A stretch of 42,348 nucleotides of DNA, taken from NCBI GenBank assembly GCA_913050645.1, contig CAJXAG010000002.1:1-42348 (forward strand), read 5' to 3'. Of this stretch, positions 21,397 through 26,832 are shown in pieces (the stretch's first letter is position 1; each line of letters starts with the position of its first letter). This DNA comes from an uncultured bacterium. GTDB lineage: Bacteria; Patescibacteriota; Minisyncoccia; Phycocordibacterales; UBA918. Position numbers and translations under genes: made by a program. The notes below the pieces were generated by a model. It made no database searches and had not been told where the DNA came from. It saw only the letters and a list, made by a program, of their open reading frames with translations.

Positions 21397-21468
21397 GGTC
21401 CCATCGTCTAACGGCTAGGACACATGGTTCTCATCCATGAAATCGGGGTTCGATTCCCCGTGGGATCA
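21397..21468 (+). tRNA. tRNA-Glu (anticodon CUC)
   Basis: Hand-folded cloverleaf. Acceptor ggtccca/tgggatc, D-arm gtct..ggac, anticodon stem catgg/ccatg with loop ttCTCat, T-arm cgggg-ttcgatt-ccccg, discriminator A. CCA is not encoded. The D-arm is very like bacterial tRNA-Glu. Confidence 0.9.
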
Positions 21469-21477
21469 CTTGACAAA

Positions 21478-21517
21478 TAGTAAAAACCATTGGGTTATAA
21501 CCCAATGGTTTTTACTA
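21478..21517 (+). terminator. 19-bp perfect hairpin downstream of the tRNA
   Basis: tagtaaaaaccattgggtt (21478-21496) pairs with aacccaatggtttttacta (21499-21517). Confidence 0.65.
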
Positions 21518-21536: not shown

Positions 21537-21551
21537 TCAAGTGATCCCACG
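21537..21551 (-). repeat. inverted copy of the tRNA-Glu 3' end plus trailer
   Basis: tcaagtgatcccacg is the reverse complement of cgtgggatcacttga (21459-21473). Confidence 0.8.
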
Positions 21552-21779
21552 AGCAACCTGCTGGGAGCTGGTTGCGCGGGGATCGAAAAGCTTTTGAGGT
21601 AGATTGGGAGTGAAACGAACCAATGTATCCAAAAGGTATACTGCTCCCGTAGGGAGAGATTCCTCGTGGTCATCTCTTTCGAGTCCTTACAGGACCTGTT
21701 CAGGTTGTCGCTGTTTTGGTTTGCATTCGTTCCAAAACAACAGGCAACCTTCTGAAACAGTGTAGTGACACTGTTTCAG

Positions 21780-21793
21780 CCCCGTGGGATCAC
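21780..21793 (+). repeat. direct copy of the tRNA-Glu 3' end (att-like)
   Basis: ccccgtgggatcac is identical to 21456-21469. Confidence 0.8.
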
Positions 21794-21916: not shown

Positions 21917-22180
21917 CTACCACTTCAATCTGTAGCCAGGTTTGTTACGGCTTATAAAGGAATTTAGACCATCGCCATTTATGGCTAGGACTTTCATGTG
22001 TTCAACATTCGAAGATCCTGCACTAGAATATGTATATTCGTAGTGCTGACAACTTCCAGATTTGAACTTCACTGTGATGCTGTCGCATTCAATCGCGAAA
22101 GCTTCCACGTTTGAATCGTGATCAATATCGGCATATATCTGCATAGTCAGTATATTCGTTATTGATTGAGTCGGTATCAC
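21917..22180 (-). CDS. KTSC domain-containing protein
   Basis: SNVEAFAIECDSITVKFKSGSCQHYEYTY...GLNSFISRNKPGY fits the KTSC pattern (SxNI..xxYD...L.V.F..G..Y.Y...., G.yfn..I). The track start is GTG 22180; ATG 22144 is an alternative. Confidence 0.55.
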   Translation of the reverse strand: MIPTQSITNILTMQIYADIDHDSNVEAFAIECDSITVKFKSGSCQHYEYTYSSAGSSNVEHMKVLAINGDGLNSFISRNKPGYRLKW

Positions 22181-22726: not shown

Positions 22727-23602
22727 ATGCCAAGAACATTAGAACAGGGATTTGGTGATTTCCATTCAAAATTAAAGTTGGTTAAAACCGAATCTGAAGC
22801 TGTTAAAAGCCATAGATCTTCAATTGAGACCTGCCTCAAGAATAATTTTGGCATGAATCGTTTCTTCCGCACTGGTTCAATTGGTAATGGTACTAATGTG
22901 AATGGATTCAGTGATACTGATTATTTTGCAGGGATACACAGAGAGAATCTGAGAGATAATTCGGCAACTACACTTAGGCAGGTAAAGGAAGTGCTCGAAA
23001 ATAGATTTTCGACAACGGCAGGAATACGAGTCGATAGTCCAGCTGTGGTAATTCCATTTGGCACAAGTGCGTCTGAAACAACAGAAATCATACCCGCTGA
23101 TTACTTGAGAACTACAAGTGGTGTAAATATATACGATATCCCAGACGGTAAAGGTGGCTGGATGCAGGCAAGTCCAAAAGCCCATAAGGATTATGTGACA
23201 GATATAAATGCAAAACTCAGCTATAAAGTGAAGCCCCTTATTAGGTTTGTGAAGGCTTGGAAGTTTTATAACAATGTTCCAGTTTCGTCATTCTATTTGG
23301 AAATGAGAGTCGCAAAATTCGCTTCATCTGAAACCTCAATAGCATACTCTATAGATTTGAGAAGTATCTTCAAGCATTTGGTCGATATAGATCTAGCTGC
23401 AATGAATAACCCTGCTGGAATTCCAGGTTCAACCCAGGCATGTAGATCTGCTGCTGCCAAAGTTGAAGCTATGTCAAAACTAAATACAGCTTTACGAAGA
23501 GCGAACAATGCACGAGATTGTGAATCAAGCGGGAATATTAAAGATGCATTTTACTGGTGGAATTTATTATTTGATCACAACTTTACTTCTTACTACTATT
23601 AA
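22727..23602 (+). CDS. SMODS/CD-NTase-like nucleotidyltransferase
   Basis: Pol-beta NTase core: TGSIGNGT (G50-S51), then FSDTDYF (D63xD65), a third acidic strand ETTEIIPAD, then W..ASPKAH and LIRFVKAWK...SSFYLEMRV. An N-terminal helix precedes the core, as in SMODS/CD-NTases. Confidence 0.7.
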   Translation: MPRTLEQGFGDFHSKLKLVKTESEAVKSHRSSIETCLKNNFGMNRFFRTGSIGNGTNVNGFSDTDYFAGIHRENLRDNSATTLRQVKEVLENRFSTTAGIRVDSPAVVIPFGTSASETTEIIPADYLRTTSGVNIYDIPDGKGGWMQASPKAHKDYVTDINAKLSYKVKPLIRFVKAWKFYNNVPVSSFYLEMRVAKFASSETSIAYSIDLRSIFKHLVDIDLAAMNNPAGIPGSTQACRSAAAKVEAMSKLNTALRRANNARDCESSGNIKDAFYWWNLLFDHNFTSYYY

Positions 23603-23604
23603 AA

Positions 23605-24480
23605 ATGAACATTATCACTACTCACCAAAATGAAGTCGAGTGTATTGATCGACTCGCTGCACAAAGATTTGCTTATGCCAAGGCAAAACAAATTTTCATA
23701 GTTAGAATTTCGATATCAACACTCTTTGCTGTGTTTGGGACTATGTTGATGGTCAGCATTGAGGAAACAAAGTTGTATATAGCAATTGCTGCGATTTTTT
23801 ACACAATGATCGATATTTTTTTACTAAGAAACATAGAAAATACATACAGAAGAGACGGGGCAAAAATCCAAGAGTTGTTTGATACCGGACTTTTTGGTCT
23901 TGAATGGAATCATTTAGTTGCTGGGAGTGTTCCAGAAAATGAAAAAGTTTGTCTCTATAATCAGCAATACCGACAAAAAAACGATATAGAGAACTTATTT
24001 AACTGGTATCCTGGCGATGTTGCTGAGCTAAGTCTTGAACAAGCAGCACTTGTGTGCCAGAGGACAAATATTTGGTGGGATGTGACTCTTCGGCAGAAAA
24101 TGTTTTGGTTGATTACTTTTGGTTTATTAGGTTTAACATTCATGCTATTCATTTTTTTTCACGGAAGTTCCCATCTATTGCTGACAGTTATTGTGACCCT
24201 ACTGCCACTCTATGAAGTATTGTGTGATTATGCCAGATCGCAATACTTGTCTATAAGCAAGATTAAGGAACTTCAGAGTAAAATTGAAGAAAGAATTGAA
24301 AGGGTGACTGGTGGAGAGTCTGTCTTACAGAGTCAACTTCGAACAATTCAGGATGAAATATTTAGACACAGAGAGAGTTGTTTGTTTGTTCCAGACTGGT
24401 TTTATTTTTTCTTTAGAGGTAAACAGGAAGAACAAATGAACTATGCTGCTTCACATTATGTTTCTAGATTCAGAAAATAG
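23605..24480 (+). CDS. 4-TM membrane protein, putative effector (S-4TM/SLATT-like)
   Basis: Starts 2 nt after the NTase stop. Hydrophobic segments lie at about aa 30-50, 56-74, 166-185 and 190-207, with a soluble loop between the pairs and a C-terminal coiled coil. This architecture matches SMODS-associated TM effectors. Confidence 0.55.
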   Translation: MNIITTHQNEVECIDRLAAQRFAYAKAKQIFIVRISISTLFAVFGTMLMVSIEETKLYIAIAAIFYTMIDIFLLRNIENTYRRDGAKIQELFDTGLFGLEWNHLVAGSVPENEKVCLYNQQYRQKNDIENLFNWYPGDVAELSLEQAALVCQRTNIWWDVTLRQKMFWLITFGLLGLTFMLFIFFHGSSHLLLTVIVTLLPLYEVLCDYARSQYLSISKIKELQSKIEERIERVTGGESVLQSQLRTIQDEIFRHRESCLFVPDWFYFFFRGKQEEQMNYAASHYVSRFRK

Positions 24481-24542
24481 CACCGCAGCTTGAATAGAGG
24501 TATAAATTTGGTTTTAATTCGCACTACTTAGGGCCACATAGT

Positions 24543-24570
24543 AAAAACATCAGCGGAACTGGTGTTTTTG
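24543..24570 (+). terminator. rho-independent terminator of the NTase/4TM operon
   Basis: aaaaacatcag (24543-24553) cggaa ctggtgttttt (24559-24569). There is one G-U pair, valid only on the plus strand. Confidence 0.7.
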
Positions 24571-24622: not shown

Positions 24623-24638
24623 AAAAAAAAGGGGGGGG
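24623..24638 (+). repeat. A8G8 homopolymer tract
   Basis: aaaaaaaagggggggg lies 60 nt upstream of the methyltransferase ATG. A G8 run is very unusual in this AT-rich island. Confidence 0.9.
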
Positions 24639-24698: not shown

Positions 24699-25739
24699 AT
24701 GGCCACAAAAACTTTAAATACAGCATTGAATAAAGCAGGTAAAGCAAAAAACGACGAGTTTTACACTCAACTCGTTGATATTGAAAAAGAACTTAAGCAC
24801 TACAAAGAACAGTTTCGTGGAAAGGTTGTGTATTGTAACTGTGACGATCCTTTTGAGAGTAATTTCTTTAAATATTTTGCGGCTAATTTTAATACGTTAG
24901 GGATCAAGAAGCTCATTAGTACGAGCTTTGTTAAATCGCCTATTGCAGGTGGTCAGTTACCATTGTTTGAAGTTAAGGGACTTAAGCCTGACGGGAAACA
25001 ACCGTTCAAAATTGAAATTACAGAAGTTACGGACATAGATGGAGACGGCGCTATTGATCTTGATGACGTCAAGAATTTGCTAAGGAGTAATAAAAACACT
25101 GCGACACCTCTTCTGGAGAATGGTGATTTCAGAAGTGCGGAGTGCATTGAATTGCTCAAAGAAGCAGATATTGTTGTTACGAATCCACCATTTTCACTAT
25201 TTCGTGAATATGTAGCACAACTAATTGAACATAATAAAAAATTCTTGATTCTTGGTGACCAGAACGCAATCACTTACAAAGAAACTTTTGGTTACATCAA
25301 AGATGACAAATTGTGGCTTGGCTATGACAACGGTGGGACTAAATGGTTTCAGGTTCCCGATGATTACGATATACAGACAGAATCAAGAAAGAAGATTGAA
25401 GATGGAGTCAAATATTTCAGTATGGGGAGAATTGTATGGTTTACAAACTTAGATACAACCAAGCGACACAACAACATTGACCTGTATAAACAGTATTCAC
25501 CCGAAGAATTTCCTAAATACGACAATTATGATGTGATCAACGTTAATAAGGTGTCTGATATTCCCAAAGATTATGACGGAGTAATGGGTGTACCGATTAC
25601 ATTTGTTGATAAATATAGCCCAAAGCAGTTTGAGATATTAGGTTTAGCCAACTCTGCAAGATGGATTGGTTATGAATGCTATACCATTATTCAAGAGAGG
25701 AAAATATACAACCGAATCATAATAAAGCGACAGAAATAA
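24699..25739 (+). CDS. N6-adenine DNA methyltransferase (EcoRI-methylase-like family)
   Basis: The N-terminal KNDEFYTQLVDIEKEL...GKVVYCNCDDP..SNFFKYF block and the catalytic IVVTNPPFSLF (NPPF, motif IV) are typical of the EcoRI_methylase family. Confidence 0.8.
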   Translation: MATKTLNTALNKAGKAKNDEFYTQLVDIEKELKHYKEQFRGKVVYCNCDDPFESNFFKYFAANFNTLGIKKLISTSFVKSPIAGGQLPLFEVKGLKPDGKQPFKIEITEVTDIDGDGAIDLDDVKNLLRSNKNTATPLLENGDFRSAECIELLKEADIVVTNPPFSLFREYVAQLIEHNKKFLILGDQNAITYKETFGYIKDDKLWLGYDNGGTKWFQVPDDYDIQTESRKKIEDGVKYFSMGRIVWFTNLDTTKRHNNIDLYKQYSPEEFPKYDNYDVINVNKVSDIPKDYDGVMGVPITFVDKYSPKQFEILGLANSARWIGYECYTIIQERKIYNRIIIKRQK

Positions 25740-25740
25740 T

Positions 25741-26832
25741 ATGAAAATTGAACTAAACAGGATCAAAATACGCGAGGTAATTGACAGCTACTCAGACAAT
25801 GCTGAAGAAGGCGTCGTTGCTTACGGGGGCAAACTTGATGTTCGTCCAAAATATCAGCGAGAGTTTGTATATAAAGGCGACCAACGCGATGCTGTTCTTG
25901 AAACTGTCAAACAAAATTTCCCGCTAAACGTTATGTACTGGGTGGTCAAAGAAGATGGAGGCTACGAAGTTTTGGATGGGCAGCAGCGCACTATCAGTAT
26001 TGGTCAGTACGTAAACGGTGATTTTTCTCTTGATGATCGCTACTTCGGAAATCTAACACAGGAAGAAAAAGATCAGATTCTTGATTATGAGTTGATGATT
26101 TATTTCTGTGAAGGAAACGACAAGGAGCGGTTGGACTGGTTCAAAACTATCAACATCGCAGGCGAACGTCTAACAGATCAGGAACTACGCAATGCAGTTT
26201 ACACAGGACCATGGCTGTCCGATGCGAAACTAAAATTCAGTAAATCTAATTGTGTCGCATATCTTGTCGCAAATGATGGTGGCTCACTTCTCAAGGGTTC
26301 TCCGATTAGACAGGAATATTTGGAAACTGCACTTTCATGGATAAACAATGACGAAGTGGCAGACTACATGGCAAAACATCAGCACGATAAAAACGCTGAT
26401 GAGTTATGGGAGTATTTCCAAAACGTAATCGCATGGGTGCGAGATACTTTCACAAACTATCGAAAAGAGATGTCGGGCGTGAACTGGGGAGAACTATGTA
26501 ACGAATTTAGCGATAAAAAACTTAACCCAGTCAAACTAGAAGAAGAAATCGCCAAGTTGATGCAAGATGAAGATGTTTCTAAAAAGTCTGGTATTTACCC
26601 TTATGTTCTAACTCGACAAGAAAAGCACCTTAATATTCGCTCATTCAACGACAAAATGAAACGTGAGGCATACGAACGCCAAAAAGGAATTTGTACAAAA
26701 TGTGGAGAGCATTTTGAGATCGGAGAAATGGAAGCAGACCACATCACCCCATGGCACGAGGGCGGCAAAACTATCGTAGAAAATTGCCAGATGTTGTGCA
26801 AGCAAGACAACCGTACGAAGTCTGGGAAGTAA
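25741..26832 (+). CDS. DUF262 (ParB/GmrSD N-terminal-like) - HNH endonuclease fusion
   Basis: RPKYQREFVY and LDGQQRT are the DUF262 signature. The C-terminus CTKCGEHFEIGEMEADHITPWHEGGKTIVENCQMLCKQDNRTK is a canonical HNH. The ATG lies 1 nt after the MTase stop. Confidence 0.8.
   Translation: MKIELNRIKIREVIDSYSDNAEEGVVAYGGKLDVRPKYQREFVYKGDQRDAVLETVKQNFPLNVMYWVVKEDGGYEVLDGQQRTISIGQYVNGDFSLDDRYFGNLTQEEKDQILDYELMIYFCEGNDKERLDWFKTINIAGERLTDQELRNAVYTGPWLSDAKLKFSKSNCVAYLVANDGGSLLKGSPIRQEYLETALSWINNDEVADYMAKHQHDKNADELWEYFQNVIAWVRDTFTNYRKEMSGVNWGELCNEFSDKKLNPVKLEEEIAKLMQDEDVSKKSGIYPYVLTRQEKHLNIRSFNDKMKREAYERQKGICTKCGEHFEIGEMEADHITPWHEGGKTIVENCQMLCKQDNRTKSGK

Follow-up and report, generated by a model that had tools for sequence, protein, structure and literature searches.

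Organization of the locus

We analysed a 42,348-nucleotide stretch (the window) of a contig from a marine member of the Patescibacteria belonging to the Parcubacteria group. Two reading frames of equal length, separated by only 2 nt, lie in it on the same strand, flanked by a tRNA gene and short unannotated ORFs on one side and by a restriction-modification (R-M) gene pair on the other:

21397..21469, + strand: tRNA-Glu(CTC) (ARAGORN; Rfam tRNA, 59.5 bits)
22727..23602, + strand: ORF1, predicted CD-NTase/SMODS oligonucleotide cyclase, 291 aa, ATG start
23605..24480, + strand: ORF2, predicted S-4TM membrane effector, 291 aa, ATG start
24542..24570, + strand: candidate intrinsic terminator downstream of both genes (12-bp stem flanked by an A-tract and a T-tract)
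24699-25739, + strand: EcoRI-like adenine methyltransferase (Pfam EcoRI_methylase, 1.5e-134; PADLOC MTase_II, 4.2e-121)
25741-26832, + strand: restriction enzyme with GmrSD_N and HNH domains (GmrSD_N, 1.9e-16; HNH, 2.6e-12; PADLOC REase_II, 2.7e-138)

The coordinates of the two 291-aa frames and their 2-nt gap are exactly those given in a preliminary description of this DNA. The annotated starts are right, since homologues of ORF1 share the N-terminus MPRT... and those of ORF2 share MN.I...QN... Likewise, the full-length profile matches of both proteins (Pfam S_4TM, 6.8e-71; PADLOC cyclase, 7.7e-115) indicate that they are genuine genes and not chance ORFs. The GC content falls to 0.37-0.40 over 22-27 kb, compared with 0.42-0.51 in the rest of the window, which agrees with the AT-rich setting past tRNA-Glu noted earlier. 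The tRNA, the sole match in an Rfam scan of 20.5-28 kb, forms the upstream edge of this low-GC defence island. The R-M genes (24699..26832) are a separate Type II pair in the same island, outside the CBASS mechanism.

A terminator common to both genes had also been proposed. The corresponding hairpin, AAAAACATCAG-cggaa-CTGGTGTTTTT, at 24542-24570, is indeed stable as RNA (-14 kcal/mol, z = -3.42; a single one of 200 shuffled sequences was equally stable), but it was not among the calls of a consensus terminator scan, and its role as an intrinsic terminator is plausible but not proven. The promoter scan returned 15 sites against 16.8 expected by chance, that is, no significant signal.

ORF1, a predicted CdnD-like cyclase

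ORF1 matched the Pfam SMODS profile (PF18144) with 48.2 bits (1.8e-12; cut-off 26.5 bits) along profile positions 3-164 of 164, and the PADLOC cyclase model PDLC00776 over its entire length (381 bits, 7.7e-115, positions 1-287 of 287). It also aligned with the whole NCBIfam model NF041117 (CBASS_cyclase_b, positions 1-275 of 275), at 125.2 bits and hence below the equivalog cut-off of 200 bits; ORF1 is thus akin to this equivalog group but falls outside its membership. An AF2 model of good quality (pLDDT 86.3, pTM 0.80) predicted the bilobed cGAS/DncV-like fold, and all of the top 50 Foldseek matches in the PDB were CD-NTases. The best of them was CdnD of P. aeruginosa ATCC27853 (PaCdnD; PDB 6P82/6P8U/6P8J), a Type III CBASS cyclase (TM 0.78, 22% identity, E 2.8e-14). 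A profile search of the PDB pointed to the same protein (3.6e-28), with other solved relatives at 2e-5 or weaker. Both profiles and predicted fold thus agree with the SMODS/CD-NTase identity proposed earlier and place ORF1 among the cGAS/DncV-like nucleotidyltransferases of a CdnD-like group, with PaCdnD as by far the best solved relative.

The idea that the two proteins are divergent did not hold: their profile matches run from end to end, there are 312 matching cluster representatives at E<1e-30, hundreds of relatives are more than 50% identical to ORF1, and NCBI already labels relatives of ORF2 'S-4TM family putative pore-forming effector'. The nearest enterobacterial relatives of ORF1 are 54% identical (a Salmonella, Yersinia and Raoultella cluster); neither megablast nor blastn found them in any of 5,426 complete E. 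coli genomes, and all plasmid matches were below 60% identity.

The motifs previously claimed for ORF1 were all found: G50-S51, D63-x-D65, W145/P150/H153 and R173-x-x-K176-x-W178-K179, all of them invariant among 21 relatives with the exception of H153. In a wider set of 107 sequences (106 cluster representatives plus ORF1), G50 was conserved in 106, S51 in 105, D63 in 92 and D65 in 104. Column 120, counting ORF1, contained E in 79 sequences and D in 12. ORF1 E120 aligns with PaCdnD D132 inside the strand E-I-I-P-A / D-A-V-P-A, ahead of which PaCdnD has a longer loop, and the Asp of 'MDVVP' in 9SA4 falls in the same column. Pairwise and profile HMMER alignments to PaCdnD preferred D125 instead, at low posterior probability; this column is variable (F/Y/D/I/V) in the 106 representatives. 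We chose E120 over D125 because column 120 is E/D within a conserved [E/D]-h-h-P-A motif. The predicted catalytic set is G50-S51, D63, D65 and E120, the choice of E120 being alignment-dependent. A glutamate at the third catalytic position had been proposed correctly; most of the subfamily has it, however, and it is not a novelty. ORF1 and PaCdnD share the GS / DxD / [D/E]-h-h-P-A layout as well as the C-terminal lobe.

ORF1 is compact. Several CD-NTases (EcCdnG, DncV and EclCdnD), with which it has in common the superfamily and the downstream logic, are activated by cleavage of a surface loop of ~30 aa (Hobbs and Kranzusch 2026, PMC12991175). Such protease-sensing activation loops have been shown for clades A and G and for some of clade D, and clade D clusters devoid of the loop showed no response to protease (PMC12991175). 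A disordered loop of this size is absent from the AF2 model of ORF1, in which pLDDT drops below 50 only at residues 53-62, a 10-aa stretch joining the GS and DxD motifs.

ORF2, a predicted S-4TM membrane effector

The match of ORF2 to Pfam S_4TM (PF18159) covered profile positions 2-289 of 291 with 239.4 bits (6.8e-71; cut-off 26.9 bits), and nine PADLOC 4TM effector models also recognized it (5e-72 to 3e-35, the best at 5.2e-72). With its full profile match, four transmembrane (TM) helices and a SMODS neighbour, ORF2 is not distinguishable from this family, which comparative genomics has predicted to be a SMODS-associated effector. SLATT effectors belong to a different family with 2 TM helices, and ORF2, with four, had no SLATT match in Pfam. 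The hydropathy peaks at ~30-50, 56-76, 166-186 and 190-210 delineate two TM hairpins, in agreement with the two pairs of hydrophobic helices described before.

The AF2 model of ORF2 (pLDDT 93, pTM 0.88) is all-helical, including the C-terminal region, and its TM peaks fall within long helices. The soluble helical parts (N-terminus, 76-165 and 212-291) share one side of the membrane, presumably the cytoplasmic one, and they contain all 11 invariant residues of the protein (A86, Q89, E90, D93, W134, C151, Q152, R163, R246, Q249 and R256). The nearest relative of ORF2 shares 58% identity with it; most effectors partnered with cyclases that are >50% identical to ORF1 share only 25-35%. The ORF2 sequence had no meaningful match in the PDB, and a Foldseek search with the model retrieved no relative among solved structures (best E 0.09). 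The ABC-exporter TM domains that came up had TM scores below 0.3, which is noise. Ligand binding and pore formation by S-4TM proteins are assumptions.

Gene pairing and system type

Among 80 species genomes carrying a relative of the ORF1 cyclase, 61, distributed across many phyla, had an S-4TM gene directly downstream of it (0-20 nt), which bears out the pairing of cyclase and TM effector proposed for this locus. In several of the remaining genomes, SLATT or other multi-TM proteins occupy the S-4TM position, including SLATT genes downstream of close relatives of the cyclase (for example at locus L013; SLATT_4, 2.7e-8). S-4TM and SLATT therefore appear interchangeable, since both are found in the slot downstream of closely related cyclases.

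Searches of the flanking ORFs with Pfam and PADLOC revealed no Cap2/Cap3 (type II), HORMA/TRIP13 (type III) or QueC/TGT/OGG-like (type IV) genes. Because no accessory gene of these or other kinds is present, we assign the locus, on its gene content, to Type I CBASS, as what appears to be an intact two-gene system. Profiles, fold, adjacency and absence of accessory genes all agree with the minimal Type I CBASS-like module initially suggested. The lack of Cap2/Cap3 had been noted correctly but, rather than being new, it merely defines Type I. The locus also differs in this respect from that of PaCdnD, whose partners (HORMA and Trip13 regulators and the NucC nuclease) are all missing here.

A closer counterpart in architecture is the Type I operon EcCdnD12-4TM, which in E. 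coli restricted phages of five families by at least 10,000-fold (bioRxiv 10.1101/2023.05.21.541620) and whose toxicity requires the cyclase active site (Richmond-Buccola et al., bioRxiv 10.1101/2023.05.21.541620). In both loci a CD-NTase of clade-D type, putatively so for ORF1, is combined with a 4TM effector, and accessory genes are lacking. The searches of E. coli genomes gave no sequence link between ORF1 and the validated operon; the likeness is at the level of architecture only, and the host here is a marine patescibacterium and not E. coli.

Host, defence island and mobility

The reduced-genome episymbiont host guessed from the sequence proved right at the level of Patescibacteria. However, defence in such lineages is less poorly characterized than had been supposed, as a catalogue of CPR defensomes exists (PMC12259885). 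Identical contigs were present in several marine metagenome assemblies, and their recurrence indicates that the CBASS genes are intact in the natural population.

The low GC content (0.37-0.40) and the adjacency to a tRNA gene support horizontal acquisition of the pair. The 1.25 kb between tRNA-Glu and ORF1 contains only short ORFs (52-87 aa), and searches of it with the proteins of a Woesebacteria element found no recombinase remnants. At position 21780, 14 bp of the tRNA 3' end are repeated, which suggests old integration scars. The Woesebacteria genome carries a related CBASS pair 3' of tRNA-Glu(CTC), beside a serine recombinase. The only long contig available from a relative, whose LysRS is 83% identical, breaks off exactly at the junction, directly behind the MurF/YbjN-like genes.

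Proposed mechanism and alternative explanations

We consider it highly probable that the pair is a CBASS abortive-infection module in which a signal made by ORF1 leads to membrane disruption by ORF2, encoded in an AT-rich island acquired horizontally. Family, fold, catalytic residues, topology, pairing, accessory-gene absence and host lineage were observed at this locus; that a signal is made, that it gates the effector, and that membrane damage and defence follow would be expected from the literature on relatives. Upon sensing of phage infection, ORF1 would be switched on, and its active site (G50-S51 / D63-x-D65 / E120) would link NTPs to form a cyclic di- or tri-nucleotide. This molecule would bind the conserved soluble, probably cytoplasmic, helical domain of ORF2 which, anchored by its two TM hairpins, would disrupt the membrane, so that the infected cell would be killed or arrested ahead of phage release. 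The CBASS pair would have arrived horizontally together with the Type II R-M system in the island beside tRNA-Glu.

ORF1 might instead be a non-signalling nucleotidyltransferase (MNT/KNT antitoxin, CCA-adding or poly(A)-polymerase-like), in which case its pairing with ORF2 would be coincidental or toxin-antitoxin-like. A weak Pfam match to the central palm domain of MTPAP-like proteins (E 6.4e-4), which at 20.3 bits stays below the threshold of 27, points in this direction, but it reflects only the common Pol-beta fold. ORF1 scores above the SMODS threshold, matches the PADLOC cyclase model at full length (7.7e-115) and CD-NTases in all of its top 50 structural comparisons, and conserves the helical lobe at the C-terminus, including its RxxKxWK motif. 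ORF2, for its part, belongs to a family that co-occurs with such cyclases, a pairing kept in 61 of 80 genomes. A non-signalling ORF1 is effectively refuted and we regard it as exceedingly improbable.

A cassette that is the decayed or silent remnant of a mobile element, deprived of its recombinase and unexpressed or non-functional in a streamlined genome, seems unlikely. The stretch between tRNA-Glu and ORF1, with nothing left of a recombinase or integrase and only 52-87 aa ORFs, the absence of a promoter signal above chance and the possible scar at 21780 would fit such decay. However, recombinase loss need not mean that the function of the cargo was lost, ORF1 and ORF2 are complete and have kept all of their catalytic and invariant residues, the neighbouring R-M genes are likewise intact, and the identical sequence comes from several metagenome assemblies. 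Membrane effectors can produce reversible arrest, and this general property, together with the missing protease-sensing loop of ORF1, would be compatible with CBASS-like signalling whose main role in an episymbiont is reversible growth arrest or dormancy, or signalling during host attachment. Against this, the pair shares a defence island with R-M genes, and modules of the same type also occur in archaea and, across many phyla, in free-living bacteria, which argues against an episymbiont-specific function; we judge such a role very unlikely.

Implications for the CdnD-like/S-4TM family

The locus is a further example of a well-known kind of CBASS and not a new system. It brings another intact Type I CBASS into the catalogue, from a marine genome of the Parcubacteria group, where it lies beside R-M genes in a tRNA-linked island. 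This is in line with recent surveys, which found streamlined CPR genomes to be densely equipped with defence systems. A more far-reaching proposal is that the loop-less CdnD-like subfamily, with its Glu at the third catalytic position and its lack of regulator genes, senses a yet-undescribed trigger, that S-4TM proteins are a structurally new class of nucleotide-gated membrane effectors, and that in Patescibacteria the module spreads on serine-recombinase elements with tRNA-Glu(CTC) as their target. We advance it only tentatively and consider it rather doubtful as a whole. S-4TM may represent a new effector class: its confidently predicted fold has no solved relative, and invariant Arg, Gln, Trp and Asp residues are located in the juxtamembrane soluble region. 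If true, all of this novelty would belong to the family and not to the locus. ORF1 and ORF2, compact and well modelled, make the pair a candidate for S-4TM structural work, for which many equally good ones exist in culturable bacteria. The locus bears on the CdnD-like/S-4TM family as a whole, namely on the trigger of loop-less cyclases, the identity of their nucleotide and the way in which S-4TM proteins may bind it and damage membranes.

Organization of the locus and its host

The pair under study consists of two open reading frames of 291 codons each, separated by 2 nt and located after a tRNA-Glu gene, just as the preliminary description had read them. The features of this region are:

21397-21469, tRNA-Glu(CTC), 1.26 kb upstream of the ORF1/ORF2 pair
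22727-23602, + strand, ORF1, cyclase gene, 291 codons
23605-24480, + strand, ORF2, S-4TM effector gene, 291 codons, 2 nt after ORF1
24699-26832, Type II R-M pair: EcoRI-like methylase (1.5e-134) and GmrSD_N/HNH restriction enzyme (PADLOC REase_II, 2.7e-138)

The GC content around ORF1 and ORF2 is 0.37–0.40, versus 0.42–0.51 in the remainder of the window. A hairpin flanked by A and T tracts (24542-24570) was recovered by RNA folding (-14 kcal/mol, z = -3.4) but was absent from the output of a consensus terminator scan; the terminator common to both genes proposed earlier is thus plausible, with a fold but no consensus call. Directly 3' of the tRNA-Glu, a strong hairpin with a T-run (AAAAACCATTGGGTTATAACCCAATGGTTTTT; 21476-21515) is probably the terminator of that tRNA.

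The identical contig is present in Tara Oceans marine metagenome assemblies, and the flanking housekeeping genes include a dcw-type cluster (mraZ, rsmH, PBP, murF) and aminoacyl-tRNA synthetases. Since its class II LysRS shares 58–72% identity with proteins named from the Parcubacteria group, Zambryskibacteria and Paceibacteria, the host is a Patescibacteria (CPR) bacterium, in line with the initial guess of a reduced-genome episymbiont.

A CD-NTase with a conserved third carboxylate

Profile searches and structure comparison agreed in identifying ORF1 as the SMODS/CD-NTase enzyme that had been proposed. Its Pfam SMODS score of 48 bits exceeded the threshold of 26.5, and it matched a PADLOC 'oligonucleotide-cyclase' model end to end (7.7e-115) as well as ~30 more cyclase models, while scoring 125 bits with NCBIfam CBASS_cyclase_b, under the equivalog cut-off of 200. 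All the motifs listed at first (G50-S51, D63-x-D65, W145/P150/H153 and R173-x-x-K176-x-W178-K179) were found and, H153 excepted, were invariant across 21 relatives. The AlphaFold2 model built from these 21 relatives was confident (pLDDT 86, pTM 0.80), and its 50 best PDB structural matches were all bacterial CD-NTases. The first was PaCdnD, the CdnD of Pseudomonas aeruginosa ATCC27853 (TM 0.78, E 2.8e-14), which was also found by sequence profile (3.6e-28), the next solved CD-NTase lying more than 20 orders of magnitude behind. PaCdnD is thus the nearest solved relative of ORF1 both by sequence profile and by fold; it is a member of a group producing cyclic trinucleotides.

The third catalytic residue could be placed at two positions. 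Pairwise and narrow-profile HMMER alignments set D125 opposite the catalytic D132 of PaCdnD, whereas a broader MAFFT alignment, made of PaCdnD and 106 full-length representatives, paired E120 with D132, P123 with P135 and A124 with A136, defining a motif [E/D]-h-h-P-A. In this alignment 79 of the 107 sequences have E in column 120 and 12 have D; column 125 is unconserved (F/Y/D/I/V). An HMM derived from it still aligned PaCdnD ungapped, with low posterior probability, and placed the Asp of the 'MDVVP' stretch of the CD-NTase 9SA4 on the E120 column. Residues 118-130 lie on one strand of the model. Given the variability of column 125 and the predominance of E/D in column 120 within the motif, we rejected D125 and conclude that E120 is the predicted third carboxylate. 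The Glu suspected at this position was therefore correct, although it is no peculiarity of the locus, being the majority residue of the subfamily.

Nor did the claim that both proteins are divergent hold: full-length relatives of ORF1 with 50–76% identity number in the hundreds, and when 1.84 billion cluster representatives were searched exhaustively, 2,301 matched at E<=1e-3, of which 312 reached E<=1e-30.

The S-4TM effector

ORF2 matched Pfam S_4TM (6.8e-71, profile positions 2-289 of 291) and nine PADLOC '4TM effector' models, bearing out its proposed nature; NCBI labels its relatives 'S-4TM family putative pore-forming effector'. Its structure model is all helix and of very high confidence (pLDDT 93, pTM 0.88). 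Foldseek found no similar solved structure (best E 0.09, TM <0.3) and a sequence search of the PDB found nothing. Hydropathy placed two transmembrane hairpins at about 30-50/56-76 and 166-186/190-210, with connecting loops of 4–5 residues; consequently, the N-terminus, 76-165 and 212-291 lie on one membrane side, presumably the cytoplasm. All 11 residues invariant in a 44-sequence alignment (A86, Q89, E90, D93, W134, C151, Q152, R163, R246, Q249 and R256) fall in these soluble parts, and we infer that they form a putative ligand-sensing site.

A Type I CBASS with an exchangeable effector

In the ORFs around the pair we detected no Cap2/Cap3, HORMA/TRIP13, CapW/CapH-CapP-like or other defence-associated genes. 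Because such accessory genes were not detected, ORF1/ORF2 is, judged by gene content, a Type I CBASS; the lack of Cap2/Cap3 that had been noted stands, but it is the definition of this type rather than a novelty. The R-M pair directly downstream is a separate system and, together with the CBASS pair, makes the low-GC segment at 22-27 kb a small defence island. In a Patescibacteria MAG (L003, 3686-5990) each of the four genes has a homologue (identities: methylase 47%, endonuclease 36%, cyclase 70% and 4TM 31%), but there the R-M genes precede the CBASS genes, whereas in the window they follow them. An A8 then G8 tract (24623-24638) lies ~60 nt 5' of the methylase start codon. Homopolymers beside R-M genes can drive phase variation; this one may do so or may merely hold the ribosome-binding site.

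Co-occurrence of ORF2 with nucleotidyltransferases in other genomes, set beforehand as a test, was found in a sample of 80 loci from species-representative genomes encoding an ORF1 relative at 48–70% identity. These belong to Patescibacteria, Zixibacteria, Bdellovibrionales, Nitrospirales, Bacteroidota, Planctomycetota, Chloroflexota, Poribacteria, many Proteobacteria, Cyanobacteria and also Bathyarchaeia. An ORF2 homologue directly follows the cyclase in 61 of them, with a gap of 0–20 nt in all but two. Of the remaining 19, six extend only a short way downstream. In at least one of the 19 the effector is a 2TM protein of the SLATT_4 family, and two further loci look similar; others encode different multi-TM proteins or show a weak sub-threshold S_4TM match. 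Throughout, the partner of the cyclase is thus a membrane effector, and one that can be swapped. Cyclase and effector identities to ORF1 and ORF2 are 70/31% in L003, 64/30% in L004, 65/49% in L006 and 58/29% in L007; the L003 cyclase is the closest genomic one, yet its effector is only 31% identical to ORF2. Judged from these identities, cyclase and effector divergence is uncoupled; together with the SLATT or other TM partners of some close cyclases, this points to effector shuffling or far faster effector evolution in this subfamily. In Raoultella ornithinolytica (L084, 1569-7198, adjoining mutS) the order is reversed, S-4TM then cyclase, in a defence-island-like setting with a tyrosine integrase and an AAA_15 + DUF4435 gene pair.

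Mobility and origin

The nearest cyclase relatives are partly from Patescibacteria/Woesebacteria, with other phyla mixed in, and this mixture indicates horizontal exchange. In a Candidatus Woesebacteria contig (L004, JAGOVG010000007.1, 6001-11422), a 64%-identical cyclase and an S-4TM gene come first, then two unknown ORFs and the gene of a large serine recombinase (516 aa); the end of that gene runs into a tRNA-Glu(CTC), the tRNA species also present in the window. This suggests that a tRNA-Glu-targeting integrative element carries CBASS among CPR bacteria. In the window, the last 14 nt of tRNA-Glu (CCCCGTGGGATCAC; 21456-21469) are repeated exactly 324 nt downstream (21780-21793; 0.09 expected by chance), with a partial inverted copy of the tRNA 3' end between the repeats (21541-21554, - strand, 2 mismatches). 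The 14-nt repeats look like att-site scars of past integration at tRNA-Glu; the downstream one lies upstream of the low-GC island and not at its far end. A search with the proteins of the Woesebacteria element found no recombinase remnant between tRNA-Glu and ORF1. The cassette probably came on an L004-like serine-recombinase element, and we infer that its mobility genes have been lost since.

An 87-aa ORF in the same interval (21917-22180, - strand), without Pfam or PADLOC match, resembles phrog_17428 (4.7e-13) and phrog_24656 ('virion structural protein', 6e-10) and may be a piece of a phage or mobile element. The only long contig of a close relative (L083) ends after murF/YbjN-like genes, exactly where the tRNA-Glu island of the window starts; this would be consistent with the assembly breaking off in a variable region.

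Proposed mechanism and implications

By analogy with known systems, infection would activate the ORF1 cyclase and a cyclic oligonucleotide would build up; ORF2 would bind it and compromise the membrane, and the infected cell would die or arrest. The two-gene Escherichia coli operon EcCdnD12-4TM restricts phages from five families at least 10,000-fold, with toxicity dependent on the cyclase active site (bioRxiv 10.1101/2023.05.21.541620). A 2026 preprint (PMC12991175) showed that many clade A and G cyclases, and ~18% of those in clade D, become active once a disordered loop of ~30 aa is cleaved by a phage prohead protease, and that loop-less clade D enzymes do not respond. The ORF1 model is compact, its sole low-confidence segment being 10 residues (53-62), so that ORF1 probably belongs to the loop-less group.

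All the defining features of CD-NTases, S-4TM proteins and Type I CBASS that were examined are present in this pair; ORF1 stays below the NCBIfam equivalog cut-off and does not fit the protease-loop group. A large-scale survey of CPR defensomes has already been published (PMC12259885). The trigger, the signal, the structure of S-4TM and its mode of action concern the family as a whole and can be addressed in culturable hosts.
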